A stretch of DNA of 64,000 bases from an uncultured Pseudomonadota bacterium (GTDB lineage: Bacteria > Vulcanimicrobiota > Vulcanimicrobiia > Eremiobacterales > Eremiobacteraceae), in the NCBI GenBank assembly GCA_963736005.1, contig CAVTNB010000001.1, forward strand, positions 32,001 through 96,000, in the 5' to 3' direction. Of the stretch, positions 2 through 5,277 are shown in pieces; positions within the stretch are counted from its first letter, which is position 1; every line of letters begins with the position of its first letter. A program made the translations under genes and the position numbers. The notes beneath the pieces are model-generated. The model was not told where the DNA came from, did no database searches, and was given only the letters and a program-made list of their open reading frames with translations.

Positions 2-985
2 TTTGCCGCTGCGTGCTCGGGCGGTTCGAGCGCACTCCCGGGGCCCCTGGGTCCCCAGCCGACGAGTCCTCCCAACGCAACGCCCACTCCAAGCTCCGCT
101 CCATCGCCGTCACCGACGCCCGTTGGTACGACACCCGCGGAGCCGATGATCGATAGCTGCCAGGTCTTTCCTTCGGATAATCCCTGGAACACGGATATCT
201 CAAATTACCCGGTGGACCCCAACTCTGCGAACTATCTCGCGAGCATGAATGCATCGACGAAGAACCTGCACCCAGATTTCGGATCGAATCCCACGTACGG
301 AATCCCATACATTACCGTGCCTGGAACGCAGCCGAAAGTGCCCATCAACTTCACGGAGTACGGCGATCAAAGCGACCCTGGCCCATATCCATTTCCGGCA
401 AACGCTCCGGTGGAAGGTGGTTCTGGTTCAACCGGTGACCGGCACGTGCTCGTCATCGACCGCGACAATTGCGTTCTCTACGAAACATATTACTCGTTCT
501 ACGTTGGTCCCGGCTGGAATGCGGGCTCGGGTGCGATCTTCCATTTTAACTCGGATGCGTTACGCCCCGACGGATGGACCTCAGCCGATGCTGCCGGCTT
601 GCCGATCTTCGCGGGCCTCGTCCGCTACTACGAAGTGCAGCAAGGGGCGATCGATCACGCACTGCGATTTACGGTTCATCAGACACAACAAGGATTTATT
701 CACCCGGCGACCCATTGGGCGAGTAGTTCGACGAATGCCAACCTCCCGCCGATGGGGCTTCGCGTGCGCCTCAAGGCAAGTTATGACATTTCGCACTTCA
801 CGGGCGAATCAAAAGTCGTGCTCGTTGCGTTGAAGAAGTATGGCATGATCGTGGCCGACAATGGCTCTGACTGGTTCATTACCGGCGAGACGAACACAAA
901 TTGGAACGACAACGACCTAGACCAGCTCAAGACGGTTCCCGGAAGTGCATTTGAGGTCGTCAAGACAGGCCCGATCATTCACTAG
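2..985 (+). CDS. Putative lipoprotein, conserved hypothetical (5' end outside window)
   Basis: Frame is open from base 2: FAAAC lipobox, Pro/Ser/Thr linker, then a globular domain (NPWNTDIS...DAAGLPIFAGLVRY...HALRFT). Confidence 0.75.
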   Translation, partial: FAAACSGGSSALPGPLGPQPTSPPNATPTPSSAPSPSPTPVGTTPAEPMIDSCQVFPSDNPWNTDISNYPVDPNSANYLASMNASTKNLHPDFGSNPTYGIPYITVPGTQPKVPINFTEYGDQSDPGPYPFPANAPVEGGSGSTGDRHVLVIDRDNCVLYETYYSFYVGPGWNAGSGAIFHFNSDALRPDGWTSADAAGLPIFAGLVRYYEVQQGAIDHALRFTVHQTQQGFIHPATHWASSSTNANLPPMGLRVRLKASYDISHFTGESKVVLVALKKYGMIVADNGSDWFITGETNTNWNDNDLDQLKTVPGSAFEVVKTGPIIH

Positions 986-1028
986 TCCGAATGAGCCCCG
1001 GACAGGGTGTGCCTCCGAGGTAGCATTC

Positions 1029-1574
1029 ATGAAATTTCCTTGGTTGTTGATTGGGGTCGCGGCCGGAGCCATAGCGGTTCTTGCCGTTGCAGGACCGGCG
1101 AGCGCGCTCTCCGTGGGAGACACGGCGCCCGATTTCACCGCTGACTCAACGCTAGGCGGCAAGGTGAGCTCGTTCAACCTCAAAGACGCACTGGCCAAGC
1201 ACGCCATCGTGCTGTATTTTTTTCCCAAAGCGTTTACCGCTGGCTGAACCATCGAGGCGAAAGCCTACGCCGCCAGGTTGGCGGATTTTGAAAAGCTCGG
1301 GGCCGAAGTGGTTGGTATTTCTCCAGATGACGTGAAGACGCTCGCCGATTTTCAAGAAAAAACACCCGCGCCGCAACGATTCGTCAGCGACGCGAACCGT
1401 ACGGTCATCAAAGCCTACGGGGTTGAAATCGGTGTTGGGTCCTTGACGCTCGCCAAACGTGAAACGTTTGTGATCGGCAAAGACGGTAAGATACTCTTTA
1501 GCTATTTCGATTGGAGTCCGTTGACCAACGTCAACAAGACATACGCATGGTTACAGCAACACCCGCAAAATTGA
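1029..1574 (+). CDS. Exported BCP/AhpC-TSA peroxiredoxin, probable selenoprotein (UGA at 1245-1247)
   Basis: ORFs 945-1247 and 1278-1574 are in the same frame. Read-through gives YFFPKAFTAG-U-TIEA, the PxxxTxxC peroxidatic motif. Signal peptide present; conserved Arg in KRETFVI. Confidence 0.85.
1270..1284 (+). promoter_or_regulatory. Candidate bacterial SECIS hairpin
   Basis: CCGCCA-GGT-TGGCGG stem-loop starting 22 nt after the UGA, with G-first apical loop similar to the E. coli fdhF SECIS. Confidence 0.6.
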
Positions 1575-1580
1575 GATATC

Positions 1581-1640
1581 GTGTCGTGAATTTACTCACG
1601 GCCACACGAAAATGTGGCGTCGTGAATTCATTCACGACGT
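1581..1640. repeat. REP-like palindrome doublet (GTGG variant)
   Basis: GTGGCCGTGAGTAAATTCACGAC on the minus strand and GTGGCGTCGTGAATTCATTCACGAC on the plus strand, in inverted arrangement. Confidence 0.55.
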
Positions 1641-2143
1641 TCTTGTGCTGCGCGGGGTTGATCGTGGCCTCGCTCGCGCTTGCAGCGCGTGTCTGGGCGG
1701 CGGCCCCACCACACGTGGGATCACCCGCGCCGGCCTTTTCGCTGCCTATCGTGGCGAATGGCGGTGGCACCGTTTCGCTCGATTCACTGAAAGGTCACGC
1801 CGTCTATCTCAACTTCTTTGCGACCTGGTGTCAGCCGTGCAAAGAAGAGGTGCCGTACATTTCAAAACTTTCGCAGCAATTCGCAAAGCGCAACGTGGTG
1901 GTCATCGGCGTGGACGAACTTGAATCCGCGGACAAAGTCAAGCAATTTGCGCAGCAGTATAAGCTTGCCTACAAATTGACGCTCGATAGCGGCGGCGACG
2001 TCGGTGGTAACTACGGGCTTTTGGGTCTGCCTTTGCACGTTTTTATAGCCCCAAACGGTACTGTGGCCGCGTATCGGGTGGGAGAGATGTCGGAGGCGCA
2101 GGTCCGCGCCGCGCTGCAGGCAGCAAGCTCTGCCCACACCTGA
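1622..2143 (+). CDS. TlpA/ResA-family thiol-disulfide oxidoreductase, exported
   Basis: LNFFATWCQPC motif, GLP cis-Pro loop, N-terminal hydrophobic segment. Start codon uncertain. Confidence 0.85.
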   Translation: MNSFTTFLCCAGLIVASLALAARVWAAAPPHVGSPAPAFSLPIVANGGGTVSLDSLKGHAVYLNFFATWCQPCKEEVPYISKLSQQFAKRNVVVIGVDELESADKVKQFAQQYKLAYKLTLDSGGDVGGNYGLLGLPLHVFIAPNGTVAAYRVGEMSEAQVRAALQAASSAHT

Positions 2144-2505: not shown

Positions 2506-2519
2506 ATTCGCGCGACTAC
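2495..2519 (-). repeat. GTAG-type REP palindrome
   Basis: Reverse complement is GTAGTCGCGCGAATTTATTCGCGCG; it overlaps the stop codons of both convergent genes. Confidence 0.7.
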
Positions 2520-2887
2520 ATTATCTTGAGCAGGCTGAGGACGACTGCGATGCCCAAAAGAGAGGTTGCCACGCCAACAATCAGATTGCTCGCAGCGCTT
2601 GGACGAAATTGGTCCTTCGTTAGATCGCGCGTCGTGGAGTAAAAGCGCCAGACCCCGAAGATCGCAAGCAGACATCCAAACACAGCAAAAGCCAATCCCA
2701 AACGCTCACTGCCTAAAGGCGACGACACTGTTGCTGCGCCAGGGAGGACCCGAAGGAACAGTCCAAACCGCGAGATGACAAACCCAAAGGCCATAACAGA
2801 AAGCGACGTTCTGACATATGCCAGAAACGTTCGTTCGTTTGCCAAAAAATCGGTTGGCCTCGAGGGCCCAAAGGGCGGCACGCTCAT
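2516..2887 (-). CDS. YidH/DUF202 family inner membrane protein
   Basis: DFLANERTFLAYVRTSL signature and three hydrophobic helices. Confidence 0.9.
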   Translation of the reverse strand: MSVPPFGPSRPTDFLANERTFLAYVRTSLSVMAFGFVISRFGLFLRVLPGAATVSSPLGSERLGLAFAVFGCLLAIFGVWRFYSTTRDLTKDQFRPSAASNLIVGVATSLLGIAVVLSLLKIM

Positions 2888-2991
2888 TCCTGGCGCGGTT
2901 CCATTTGTTTCGTCTTGAATCCCGGCTGTTCGACAAGGCACAGCAGCGGCGTGCGCACAACTATTCTCCGGTGCAGCTGGCGGTAAGGGGA

Positions 2992-5277
2992 ATGCAGTTT
3001 CTCGTGGCAGCGCTTGTGTTGCTGTCACCGAGCACATCGCTGCTCGCCGCCTCGAGCGTCATGCTACCAAACGGCTGGCATGTGACGCCGGCTGGCTCGA
3101 TCGCACCGCTCGGCACGCTGCCTCTCCATATGGTTGAAGATCCCTCTGGTCGATGGCTCGCCATCACGACTGGAGGTTACGGAGCGGTGGCCATCTCTTT
3201 GGTCGACGAGCAAACCGGCAGAGTCGTCTCGAGTGTGCCGGTCCCTGGGGCCTTCTATGGACTCGCGTTTTCGGGGCAATTGCTGTATGCATCCACGGCA
3301 AACGGCAACACCATCGAGCGCTACAAGATCGCACGAGATACGGGGGCTCTTTCAAGCGCGGGATCCATCACGCTCGGCACGGGCGATCTTTGGATTTCCG
3401 GGCTGGCGGCAACCAGCGGCATGCTATATGCTGCCGAGCTCGATGCCGATCAGCTCGTCGCCATCGATGCGGGCCGAGGCAACCAAGTCTGGTCGACCAA
3501 GGTCGGCAAGGCCCCATATGCTGTCGTGCTATCGCCCGACAACCAGACACTCTACGTTAGCAATTGGGCGTCGTCTTCGGTTTCGGTTGTGAACGCACGG
3601 AGTGGAAAACTCGAGAAAGAAATTACCGTCGGCGCACACCCCAATGCCGAATTATTGTCTCGCGATGGCGAGCAGCTCTACGTTGCGTGCGCCAACAGCG
3701 ATACCGTCGCCGAGATCGACACAAAGAAGCAGGCCCTGCACGCGACCATCGACGCGAACATCTATCCCCACGCACTCGAAGGCGCAACGCCAAACGGTCT
3801 CGCCCTGTCGCCATACGGCAGGACGCTTTTTGTGGCGGACGCGGGCGACAACGCAATCGTCGCAGTGGATCTGACGACCAGCACCCCTACCGCATTCGGT
3901 GCGATTCCGACAGGTTGGTATCCGACAGACGTCACTGTGTCAAGGGATGGCCAGAAAATTTACGTTCTCGATGGGAAGGGCGTGTCAGGCCACCCAAATC
4001 CGTTCTATGCGCATTCCGACGTCATCGCGCATGGCGCCCCTCGAGATGACCGTTACTACGTGGCTGCGCTTGCCACCGGCGATCTCGAAATGCTGCCCTT
4101 GTCAAATCACGCGAGCCTGGTCGCGGGGCTCGCTGCCGTCCGACTGAACTCGCCTTACAAACCAAAATTGCCGATGACCGTCGAGTTGCCAAAGAACGTG
4201 CACGTTATCTACATCATTAAGGAAAATCGGACCTACGATGAAGTGCTGGGTGACGATCCTCGTGGCAATGGGGATTCGGATCTGACGATTTTCGGCAGGC
4301 GCGTCACGCCGAATATTCACCGGCTTGCGCAGTCGTTTGTCCTGTTGGATAATTTCGACACGGACGCCGCCGTCAGCGCAGATGGCCATAACTGGAGCAC
4401 GGCCGCCTACGCGAGCGATTGGGTTGAGAAGTTCTGGCCCCCCGAATACTCCGGCCGACGGCCGACCTACGACTTCGAGGAACGCGGCCCGGCATCGCCT
4501 CAAGCAGGATATCTTTGGAACGATGCGATCGAGCACGGCGTGACCTTTCGCGATTATGGCGAATTTCTCAAACTGGGCGGCGATGCGCCGTTTGCCCCTT
4601 CCGATCCGTCGCTAGATGGTTGGATCGACCCGAATTACCGAGGATTCGATCTGCACCACTCGGATCAAGAGCGGATAGAAGAATGGCTGCGCGAGTTTCG
4701 CCAGTTCGTCGCAGACGGGAAGTTGCCACAACTGGAAATCGTTCGACTGCCGAGCGATCATACCGCGGCGACCAGGCCCGGCTATAAGACACCGTATGCC
4801 ATGCTGGCGGACAATGACTATGCGGTCGGGCGTCTGGTGGACGCCGTGAGCCACAGCTCATATTGGGCGAATACCATCATTTTCAGTGTGGAGGACGATG
4901 CACAAGCCGGACCGGATCACGTCAGCGACCACCGCGCCGAAGCGTTGATTGTCGGCGGTCCTATTAAGCGGGGCCTCGTCGATCACACGCATTACACGAC
5001 CTCAAGCGTCTTGCGGACGATCGAGTTGCTCTTGGGTCTCCCGCCGATGAGCCAATTCGACGCTGGAGCAACCCCGATGACCTTTGACTTTGCGAACCAG
5101 GGGAACGCGGAACCGTGGACCGCCTCGAAACCGCTCATCGATCTTACGAGTGTGAATTCCGGCAGCAATCCGGACGCAAAGACATCGCAATCGTTGAATC
5201 TGAACGAAGCCGATGCCGCCGATCCGTCAACGCTCACCGCAATCTTGTTTCGCTTCGCCAAGGCGCACAAACACTAG
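2992..5277 (+). CDS. Secreted YVTN/YncE beta-propeller plus phosphoesterase (alkaline-phosphatase-like) fusion
   Basis: Signal peptide, repeated VG..P....SPD...LYV blades, and HVIYIIKENRTYD, SADGHNW, EDDAQAGPDHV motifs. Confidence 0.85.
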   Translation: MQFLVAALVLLSPSTSLLAASSVMLPNGWHVTPAGSIAPLGTLPLHMVEDPSGRWLAITTGGYGAVAISLVDEQTGRVVSSVPVPGAFYGLAFSGQLLYASTANGNTIERYKIARDTGALSSAGSITLGTGDLWISGLAATSGMLYAAELDADQLVAIDAGRGNQVWSTKVGKAPYAVVLSPDNQTLYVSNWASSSVSVVNARSGKLEKEITVGAHPNAELLSRDGEQLYVACANSDTVAEIDTKKQALHATIDANIYPHALEGATPNGLALSPYGRTLFVADAGDNAIVAVDLTTSTPTAFGAIPTGWYPTDVTVSRDGQKIYVLDGKGVSGHPNPFYAHSDVIAHGAPRDDRYYVAALATGDLEMLPLSNHASLVAGLAAVRLNSPYKPKLPMTVELPKNVHVIYIIKENRTYDEVLGDDPRGNGDSDLTIFGRRVTPNIHRLAQSFVLLDNFDTDAAVSADGHNWSTAAYASDWVEKFWPPEYSGRRPTYDFEERGPASPQAGYLWNDAIEHGVTFRDYGEFLKLGGDAPFAPSDPSLDGWIDPNYRGFDLHHSDQERIEEWLREFRQFVADGKLPQLEIVRLPSDHTAATRPGYKTPYAMLADNDYAVGRLVDAVSHSSYWANTIIFSVEDDAQAGPDHVSDHRAEALIVGGPIKRGLVDHTHYTTSSVLRTIELLLGLPPMSQFDAGATPMTFDFANQGNAEPWTASKPLIDLTSVNSGSNPDAKTSQSLNLNEADAADPSTLTAILFRFAKAHKH

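Follow-up and report, generated by a model that had tools for sequence, protein, structure and literature searches.

The window analysed here, a stretch of 64,000 nucleotides, contains a locus near its 5' end that raises the question of whether an in-frame TGA has broken a peroxiredoxin gene in two or is read as selenocysteine (Sec, U). Open reading frame calling with table 11 splits the locus into two frames (945/1029..1247 and 1278..1574). When followed from ATG 1029 to the stop codon at 1572-1574, the sequence forms a single frame, and its sole interruption is the TGA at 1245-1247, codon 73. From comparison with homologues, we consider it very probable that 1029-1574 is an intact selenoprotein gene encoding an exported 1-Sec enzyme of the BCP/PrxQ peroxiredoxin type, with Sec insertion directed by a hairpin 3' of the UGA (hairpin 2, Table 1) and with recycling of the enzyme by a TlpA-like protein.

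Table 1 Features of the peroxiredoxin locus, in window coordinates
Feature	Position	Strand	Remarks
Putative Shine-Dalgarno-like motif, GAGG, 8 nt 5' of the ATG	1017..1020	+	read from the sequence
Peroxiredoxin gene, BCP/PrxQ type, with predicted Sec	1029..1574	+	181 codons, then TGA stop; P66xxxT70xxU73, R144
Predicted signal peptide, residues 1-26	1029..1106	+	hydrophobic segment, then AxA-like motif; predicted cleavage after ASA26
UGA probably read as selenocysteine (U73), predicted peroxidatic residue	1245..1247	+	TGA in 24 homologues, TGC/TGT in 85 others; Sec machinery present
Hairpin 1, AGGC-GAAA-GCCT, 4-bp stem, putative accessory or spacer element	1255..1266	+	kept in 22 of 24 TGA forms
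Hairpin 2, bSECIS candidate, CCGCCA-GGU-UGGCGG, 6 bp, loop 1276-1278	1270..1284	+	28 nt after the UGA; -8.6 kcal/mol
TlpA/ResA-like thiol:disulfide oxidoreductase, WCQPC, N-terminal hydrophobic anchor	1547..2143	+	start uncertain

Reading frame and predicted export

A preliminary description of this DNA had proposed a frame broken only by the TGA at codon 73, in the context FPKAFTAG-U-TIEA, and both were recovered when the sequence was read again. With TGA translated as U, the product runs MKFPWLL...FFPKAFTAG-U-TIEAKAYAARL..., and this translation agrees with the same description in that the 181-residue protein contains no Cys at all. Contigs from two sequencing runs (X1 record 1 and X5 record 15) span the UGA, and among the differences listed for them none falls at 1245-1247.

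The N-terminus consists of MKF followed by 19 hydrophobic residues and PASA|L, and resembles a type I signal peptide when judged by eye and with a hydropathy script. A signal peptide had also been proposed in the preliminary description. With the hydropathy script, the same arrangement of a hydrophobic N-terminus and an AxA-like site after it was found in 35 of 35 homologues, Sec and Cys forms alike, and the whole clade thus looks exported.

A scan for promoters and terminators returned no promoter-like site. It did return one terminator-like hairpin with a T-run (AGCACGCCATCGTGCT GTATTTTTTT), located within the peroxiredoxin gene at 1198-1213, 32 nt 5' of the UGA; this is a consensus match only, and the single terminator-like site compares with 3.4 in shuffled sequences, i.e. 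fewer than in the shuffles.

Relationship to BCP/PrxQ peroxiredoxins

The read-through product was matched by the Pfam family AhpC-TSA (PF00578) across the TGA (residues 29-155, E 4.7e-30, 104.5 bits against a cut-off of 26). The active-site motif PxxxTxxC, as defined in PMC3322552, is present together with the conserved Arg, with Sec replacing Cys. The closest solved structures are BCP/PrxQ enzymes, namely 3drn (E 4.5e-17), 2cx3, 5iiz and others with E-values up to 2e-13, and the top 10 PDB matches are all of this type. The TGA had been assigned to the peroxidatic Cys position of BCP; in the alignment with 3drn, U73 indeed falls on the peroxidatic position, and R144 falls on the conserved Arg. 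The correspondence extends across 3drn, 2cx3 and 5iiz, with the active-site Pro, Thr, Cys position and Arg all aligning. In contrast to the predicted window protein, those enzymes are cytoplasmic and Cys-based, and most possess a resolving Cys.

Among NCBIfam models, the BCP thiol peroxidase (NF006960) scores best, but its 73.8 bits lie below the equivalog cut-off of 140. The PrxU model (NF040737) yields 51.8 bits against an equivalog cut-off of 270. Judged by sequence, the window protein is a member of a divergent, predicted exported clade as opposed to an equivalog of E. coli BCP.

Sec and Cys forms among homologues

A six-frame search of 41 related genomes yielded 21 strong matches in family f1, of which 20 contain exactly one TGA and one (in G014) contains none, as well as 14 matches in the sister family f2, none with a stop. 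In an alignment of 35 homologues, all 20 TGA codons occupy the U73 column, and the other 15 sequences have TGC (13) or TGT (2) at this point. A wider survey of the phylum covered 201 genomes and gave matches at E <= 1e-25 in 124 of these. One TGA was found in 12 of 13 f1 rows and in both rows of family f3, compared to 0 of the 109 f2 genomes with a match; in the remaining 18 families, no match was obtained at E <= 1e-25. The TGA of the f3 genes (n = 2) is located in the U73 column too. The best 80 loci of a genome collection divide into 10 with TGA and 70 with TGC/TGT. The 10 TGA loci are titled mostly as Eremiobacteraeota/Vulcanimicrobiota metagenome-assembled genomes (3 are titled otherwise), and the 70 Cys loci belong mostly to Alpha- and Betaproteobacteria.

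Taken together, there are 24 distinct TGA sequences from 23 loci in two Eremiobacterota families. Alternation of Cys and UGA at this column had been put forward as a check on the selenoprotein reading, and the alignments reveal it clearly, with 24 TGA sequences set against 15 TGC/TGT sequences from the same phylum and 70 that are mostly proteobacterial. The TGA is retained across the 24 sequences down to 42% protein identity, and the C-terminal half beyond the UGA is conserved among the TGA forms, indicating purifying selection past this codon. Four of the 24 TGA rows (L027, L055, L028 and L029) belong to genomes marked as unpublished (G008, G011 and G013), and 20 remain without them; the post-TGA sequences of the public-titled records L060 and L061 are the same as those of L027 and L028, respectively.

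Some contigs carrying a TGA form with the same hairpin bear the titles 'uncultured proteobacterium', 'Candidatus Acidiferrales' and 'Candidatus Binatus' (L056, L057 and L065), although these titles may be mislabelled. The contig coordinates of L056 coincide with those of the same-genus genome G002. At the L027/L055 locus (G008; public-titled L060), tandem copies of the Sec peroxiredoxin occur, each with a TGA and a hairpin, followed by a TlpA-like gene; the second copy forms a long branch in the tree described below.

In a quick, unrooted maximum likelihood tree of 63 sequences, the 24 Sec forms and L035 make up one group (SH-aLRT 99). Within it, L035, which has Cys, falls inside a Sec genus; the Cys forms of f2 cluster with their proteobacterial counterparts. 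As the tree is unrooted, the direction from Cys to Sec was taken from the wider, Cys-based family. With this direction assumed, the tree would require two state changes, the first at the origin of the Sec clade, the second a reversal in L035.

A second conserved Cys (the ...SECRS... column), presumably with the resolving role, occurs in the 14 f2 Cys forms but in neither the 20 Sec forms nor L035, and the aligned portions of the f3 pair did not show one either. Throughout the mature peroxiredoxin domain, the Sec forms are devoid of Cys. Full-length 1-Cys forms of the clade are present in the protein collection at 47-56% identity. The helix following the active site varies in these 1-Cys forms (YSARLADF, FAVKYADF, YGAKLDDF), in contrast to the constant A-K-A-Y-A-A-[R/S]-L-A of the f1 Sec forms. 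This constancy fits an RNA constraint acting upon the protein sequence.

Selenocysteine machinery and other UGA-containing genes

The genome that holds the window (2.84 Mb in 6 contigs, 84% complete) was searched for the components of Sec biosynthesis and insertion. A tRNA-Sec was found (71.6 bits), which ARAGORN calls as tRNA-SeC with anticodon tca. selA (520 bits) and selB (302.6 bits) are located near each other on contig 2, and selD scores 367 bits, each above its curated cut-off. All four genes named in the preliminary description as a check on its proposal are therefore present. selB is also found above cut-off in 27 of the 31 genomes of the same family, including 20 of the 20 genomes with a TGA form.

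Two further genes of this genome contain an in-frame TGA. The first is selD itself (locus L018, G000:C1:2000550-2001494, minus strand), with the TGA in SSCAG-U-ASK and a 6-bp GC-rich hairpin with a CGUG loop 20 nt 3' of the UGA; by its sequence, the product would be a Sec-containing selenophosphate synthetase. The other encodes a second BCP-type peroxiredoxin with a predicted Sec (locus L021, G000:C3:225623-225952, minus strand; YPKDATSG-U-TVEA). This cytoplasmic BCP lacks a signal segment, and an 8-bp GC-rich hairpin with a GUC loop is located 29 nt 3' of its UGA. TGA-bearing homologues of the L021 protein occur in most of the related genomes of the 41-genome search.

Hairpins 3' of the UGA

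Both hairpins previously noted just downstream of the UGA were located at the positions given in Table 1, but only the second fits the spacing expected of a bSECIS. The published bSECIS model specifies a loop of 3-9 nt, a stem of 4-16 bp, a G in the first two loop positions, a UGA-loop distance of 16-37 nt and an MFE of <= -7.5 (as given in the legend to Fig. 2 of PMC13188914). When set beside these published values, hairpin 2 agrees on every count (loop of 3 nt starting with GG, stem of 6 bp, spacing of 28 nt and MFE of -8.6). In hairpin 1, the distance from UGA to loop is 11 nt, short of the 16-37 nt that the model allows.

Hairpin 2 is present in 24 of 24 TGA forms and is never broken, whereas no Cys form has it, L035 of f1 included. 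In all 22 f1 TGA forms it reads CCGCCA-G[G/U][U/C]-UGGCGG, such that only the last two loop bases vary and synonymous positions are included in the invariance. The f3 TGA forms (n = 2) have the hairpin in register with a CGUGC loop, one of them by way of a C-G to U-A double change. The same 15 nt give -8.6 kcal/mol in 22 of the 24 Sec forms, compared with a mean of -1.3 in 15 Cys forms. The minimum of third-codon-position entropy for the gene falls at codons 80-85 (0.25 bits versus a gene mean of 1.27, across 20 Sec forms); the corresponding value in the Cys forms is 1.0 bits. Pairing is observed in 98.3% of cells, as opposed to no more than 41% on shifting the partner column. Hairpin 1 retains all four pairs in 22 of the 24 TGA forms, with one pair broken in L026 and L029. 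It occurs in both f3 forms with other loops (GCGC and CCAG) and is absent from the Cys forms.

Covariation amounts to one compensatory double change in one sequence, a level reached by 23 of 500 shuffles, and the remaining pairs are invariant. Because the stem hardly varies, this support is thin and covariation is close to uninformative, so we turned to the entropy of synonymous sites and to the difference between Sec and Cys forms. For the 66 nt 3' of the UGA, the folding energy is unremarkable given the base composition (z 0.04), and the case for the hairpins therefore rests on the comparison of homologues and not on energy. As the hairpin 2 region also encodes part of helix alpha2, conservation in this region is partly at the protein level; yet the synonymous sites are frozen too. 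An Rfam scan of 900-2300 with E-values up to 10 gave a single, chance-level match (17.7 bits against a gathering score of 39), and no model fits the element.

Like the fdhF-type SECIS of E. coli and the bSECISearch consensus, hairpin 2 is an intragenic stem-loop 3' of the UGA, with a small loop in which a first G is followed by G or U and a spacing of 16-37 nt. It differs from the fdhF-type element in having a simple 6-bp stem and a 3-nt loop, and in being preceded by a second small conserved hairpin. We know of no sequence similarity between the window element and fdhF.

A TlpA/ResA-like gene adjoins the peroxiredoxin gene

Downstream of the peroxiredoxin lies a gene for a TlpA/ResA-like protein. 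Candidate starts for this gene are ATG 1547, which would create a 28-nt overlap with the peroxiredoxin 3' end, and TTG 1511, which is also open. Of the NCBIfam models, ResA gives E 6.3e-30 and 104.4 bits (cut-off 170) and TlpA gives 47.8 bits (cut-off 230), placing the protein below both cut-offs.

A TlpA-like homologue is found downstream on the same strand in 17 of the 23 distinct Sec loci, 4-130 nt past the aligned part of the peroxiredoxin. This compares with 0 of 70 proteobacterial-type Cys loci (inspected with 3-kb flanks), in a comparison that excludes the 14 f2 Cys loci, for which only about 200 nt of flank was available. In one locus, the TlpA-like gene comes after a tandem second copy of the Sec peroxiredoxin. 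The exceptions comprise one genus (three Sec loci, with a PaaI-like thioesterase), the two f3 loci and one contig end (L029). Across L030, L033, L034 and L035, all from that one genus, a PaaI/hotdog-like thioesterase and not a TlpA-like gene follows the peroxiredoxin. The same genus also contains the sole f1 genome with Cys (TGC) instead of Sec among the genomes searched.

In two genomes of one genus (L038 and L039), the Sec peroxiredoxin and the TlpA-like protein form a single frame of at least 332 aa with one TGA (L038, 1054-2052 on the minus strand; L039, a plus-strand ORF ending at 2403). Both have SWC[GA]PC in the TlpA-like domain, and Pfam recognises two AhpC/Redoxin stretches in the fusion. 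In two other genomes of this genus (L037 and L138), the two genes are separate. Two DsbD_TM homologues are found elsewhere in the genome; no CcdA/DsbD gene adjoins the peroxiredoxin-TlpA pair.

A precedent for such a pairing exists in Caulobacter, where, according to PMC3322552, ScsB reduces TlpA and TlpA in turn reduces PprX, a periplasmic PrxQ-type peroxiredoxin; the gamma domain of E. coli DsbD was also able to reduce PprX. By analogy, the adjacency and the fusions point to a Sec version of this known periplasmic PprX-TlpA peroxide pathway, with the assignment of the partner being based on gene order and the fusions. Shared with the PprX-TlpA-ScsB system of Caulobacter crescentus are a signal-bearing peroxiredoxin of the PrxQ/BCP type, a TlpA-type reductant and feeding by the DsbD family, which for the window locus are predicted only. 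PprX (CC1673) possesses a peroxidatic and a resolving Cys, in contrast to the window protein with its predicted Sec and no resolving residue. The window locus also differs in that the partner gene is adjacent or fused and in the lack of an adjacent ScsB/DsbD gene.

Proposed mechanism and alternatives

We propose that when a ribosome reaches UGA73, hairpin 2, with its G-first triloop 28 nt on, would recruit SelB with Sec-tRNA(Sec), leading to insertion of selenocysteine instead of termination, as the comparison of homologues suggests. The N-terminal signal peptide, recognised from sequence features, would direct the product via the Sec translocon to the cell envelope. There, by what is known of the family, the U73 selenolate in the PxxxTxxU/Arg site is expected to reduce H2O2 or organic peroxides, becoming a selenenic acid. 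Gene order and the two fusions suggest that the oxidised Sec would be reduced directly by the CxxC of the downstream TlpA/ResA-like protein, which could itself be recharged by a membrane electron transporter of the CcdA/DsbD type. Reduction of U73 by this CxxC, fed by such a transporter, would constitute a selenium version of the Caulobacter ScsB-TlpA-PprX pathway.

A bolder version of this proposal, for and against which we see the balance as even, is that the locus represents the first selenium-dependent module for peroxide reduction in a bacterial cell envelope. It would comprise an exported 1-Sec PrxQ that has given up the resolving Cys and passes its selenenic acid straight to a dedicated CxxC partner of the TlpA-like kind, encoded by the neighbouring gene in most genomes and joined to the peroxiredoxin in two. 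Only one Eremiobacterota clade would possess the module, and a two-hairpin SECIS would have frozen helix alpha2 (AKAYAA[R/S]LA) in the f1 Sec forms, with the related Cys forms varying.

That the TGA simply terminates translation, leaving a pseudogene or a true split with dead halves or separate products, is extremely improbable. It agrees with the two ORFs given by table 11 and with the presence in databases of only C-terminal fragments of the TGA forms, but it sits poorly with a TGA kept in 24 sequences of two families down to 42% protein identity, with protein-level conservation of the sequence that follows and with the presence of the Sec machinery. Furthermore, the TGA occupies the position of the family's catalytic Cys, and half a peroxiredoxin has no fold. 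It is also very unlikely that UGA is read through as Cys or Trp, either by near-cognate decoding or through a reassigned code. Cys does function at this position in homologues, including L035 nested within the Sec clade; however, TGA serves as the stop codon of the gene itself and of 14 of 20 TGA-form homologues, which shows that the codon is not reassigned, and the conserved TGA-only hairpin and the complete Sec pathway favour SelB-dependent insertion. The reading of the locus in the preliminary description as an exported 1-Sec peroxiredoxin is thus supported by the Sec/Cys alternation, the Sec machinery and a bSECIS-type hairpin confined to TGA forms, at the level of sequence prediction.

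Two alternatives accept a selenoprotein but differ in its details. SelB might bind hairpin 1, or both hairpins, and not hairpin 2 alone, which we judge unlikely. In favour of hairpin 1 are its loop, which likewise starts with G, its retention in 22 of the 24 TGA forms, both f3 forms with their altered loops included, and its absence in Cys forms. Against this stand its loop position, too close to the UGA for the 16-37 nt range, and the broken pair in L026 and L029 where hairpin 2 is never broken; the other two Sec genes of the genome, moreover, have a single hairpin each, at 20 and 29 nt. Rather unlikely, too, is the proposal that the reductant is another thioredoxin-fold protein of the envelope, a DsbD domain or a small thiol, with the adjacency reflecting a different shared function. 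Such a reductant would be in keeping with the 6 of 23 Sec loci that have no TlpA-like gene downstream (L029 being a contig end) and with the reduction of PprX by the gamma domain of E. coli DsbD (PMC3322552), but the TlpA-like protein is favoured by its in-frame fusion to the peroxiredoxin in two genomes and by the position of its gene next to the peroxiredoxin in 17 of 23 Sec loci versus 0 of 70 Cys loci.

Known Sec peroxiredoxins and database records

Peroxiredoxins containing Sec (PF00578, TxxU) have been a known selenoprotein family since 2001-2005, and include PrxU of Eubacterium acidaminophilum and COG1225-type peroxiredoxin selenoproteins of the Sargasso Sea, as described in PMC13188914 and PMC1088965. 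The features shared with this family (PMC13188914 and PMC1088965) are the AhpC/TSA fold, Sec at the peroxidatic position in PxxxTxxU, a bSECIS directly after the UGA and widespread Cys homologues. The window protein is not a PrxU orthologue, and differs from PrxU and the known Sec peroxiredoxins in its predicted signal peptide, the lack of any other Cys and the TlpA-like gene that is paired or fused with it. Among the papers listed by full-text searches outside subscription journals, none dealt with an exported Sec peroxiredoxin or with selenocysteine in Eremiobacterota. Neither Sec peroxiredoxins nor periplasmic PrxQ-TlpA pathways are new in themselves; possibly only their combination is.

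Among 5.8 billion proteins, the best full-length match is 56% identical and is a Cys form, while orthologues at 94%, 81% and 70% identity are present as DNA. The Sec forms are represented in this protein set only by C-terminal pieces of 102-107 aa that begin just past the UGA. As the databases hold only these fragments, it follows that gene callers split the Sec gene, as the preliminary description had anticipated. The recording of the Sec forms of this clade as mere fragments constitutes a systematic annotation error that is corrected here, and as a consequence of it, peroxide defence of the envelope is under-counted in the Eremiobacterota, a widespread, largely uncultured and little studied soil phylum.

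The 1-Sec forms, the nested 1-Cys forms and the 2-Cys forms of the sister family provide a natural comparison set. With it, one could examine what a peroxiredoxin gains from Sec, and whether a resolving Cys becomes dispensable in its presence. The in-frame fusions provide a predicted exported selenoenzyme with a testable partner, and the putative envelope location and the coupling or fusion to TlpA appear to be the parts most worth following.

Neighbouring features

A 25-nt direct repeat is located at 1576-1600 and 1612-1636, the two copies being 80% identical and each containing a palindrome of the GTCGTGAAT..ATTCACGAC type, with perfect arms (10 + 10 nt) at 1618-1639. Should translation of the TlpA-like gene begin at ATG 1547, the repeat would fall within its N-terminal coding region; otherwise it separates the peroxiredoxin stop from the TlpA-like anchor. 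A single copy is present in L022, the nearest relative, whereas L023 and L024 lack the repeat altogether. The repeat with its palindrome could be an operator or an RNA hairpin.

Upstream of the peroxiredoxin, a 327-aa open frame (2-985, plus strand) has no match in Pfam. Other neighbours are a DUF202 membrane protein (2516-3037, minus strand) and an 819-aa protein combining a beta-propeller with a phosphoesterase-family region (2818-5277, plus strand).
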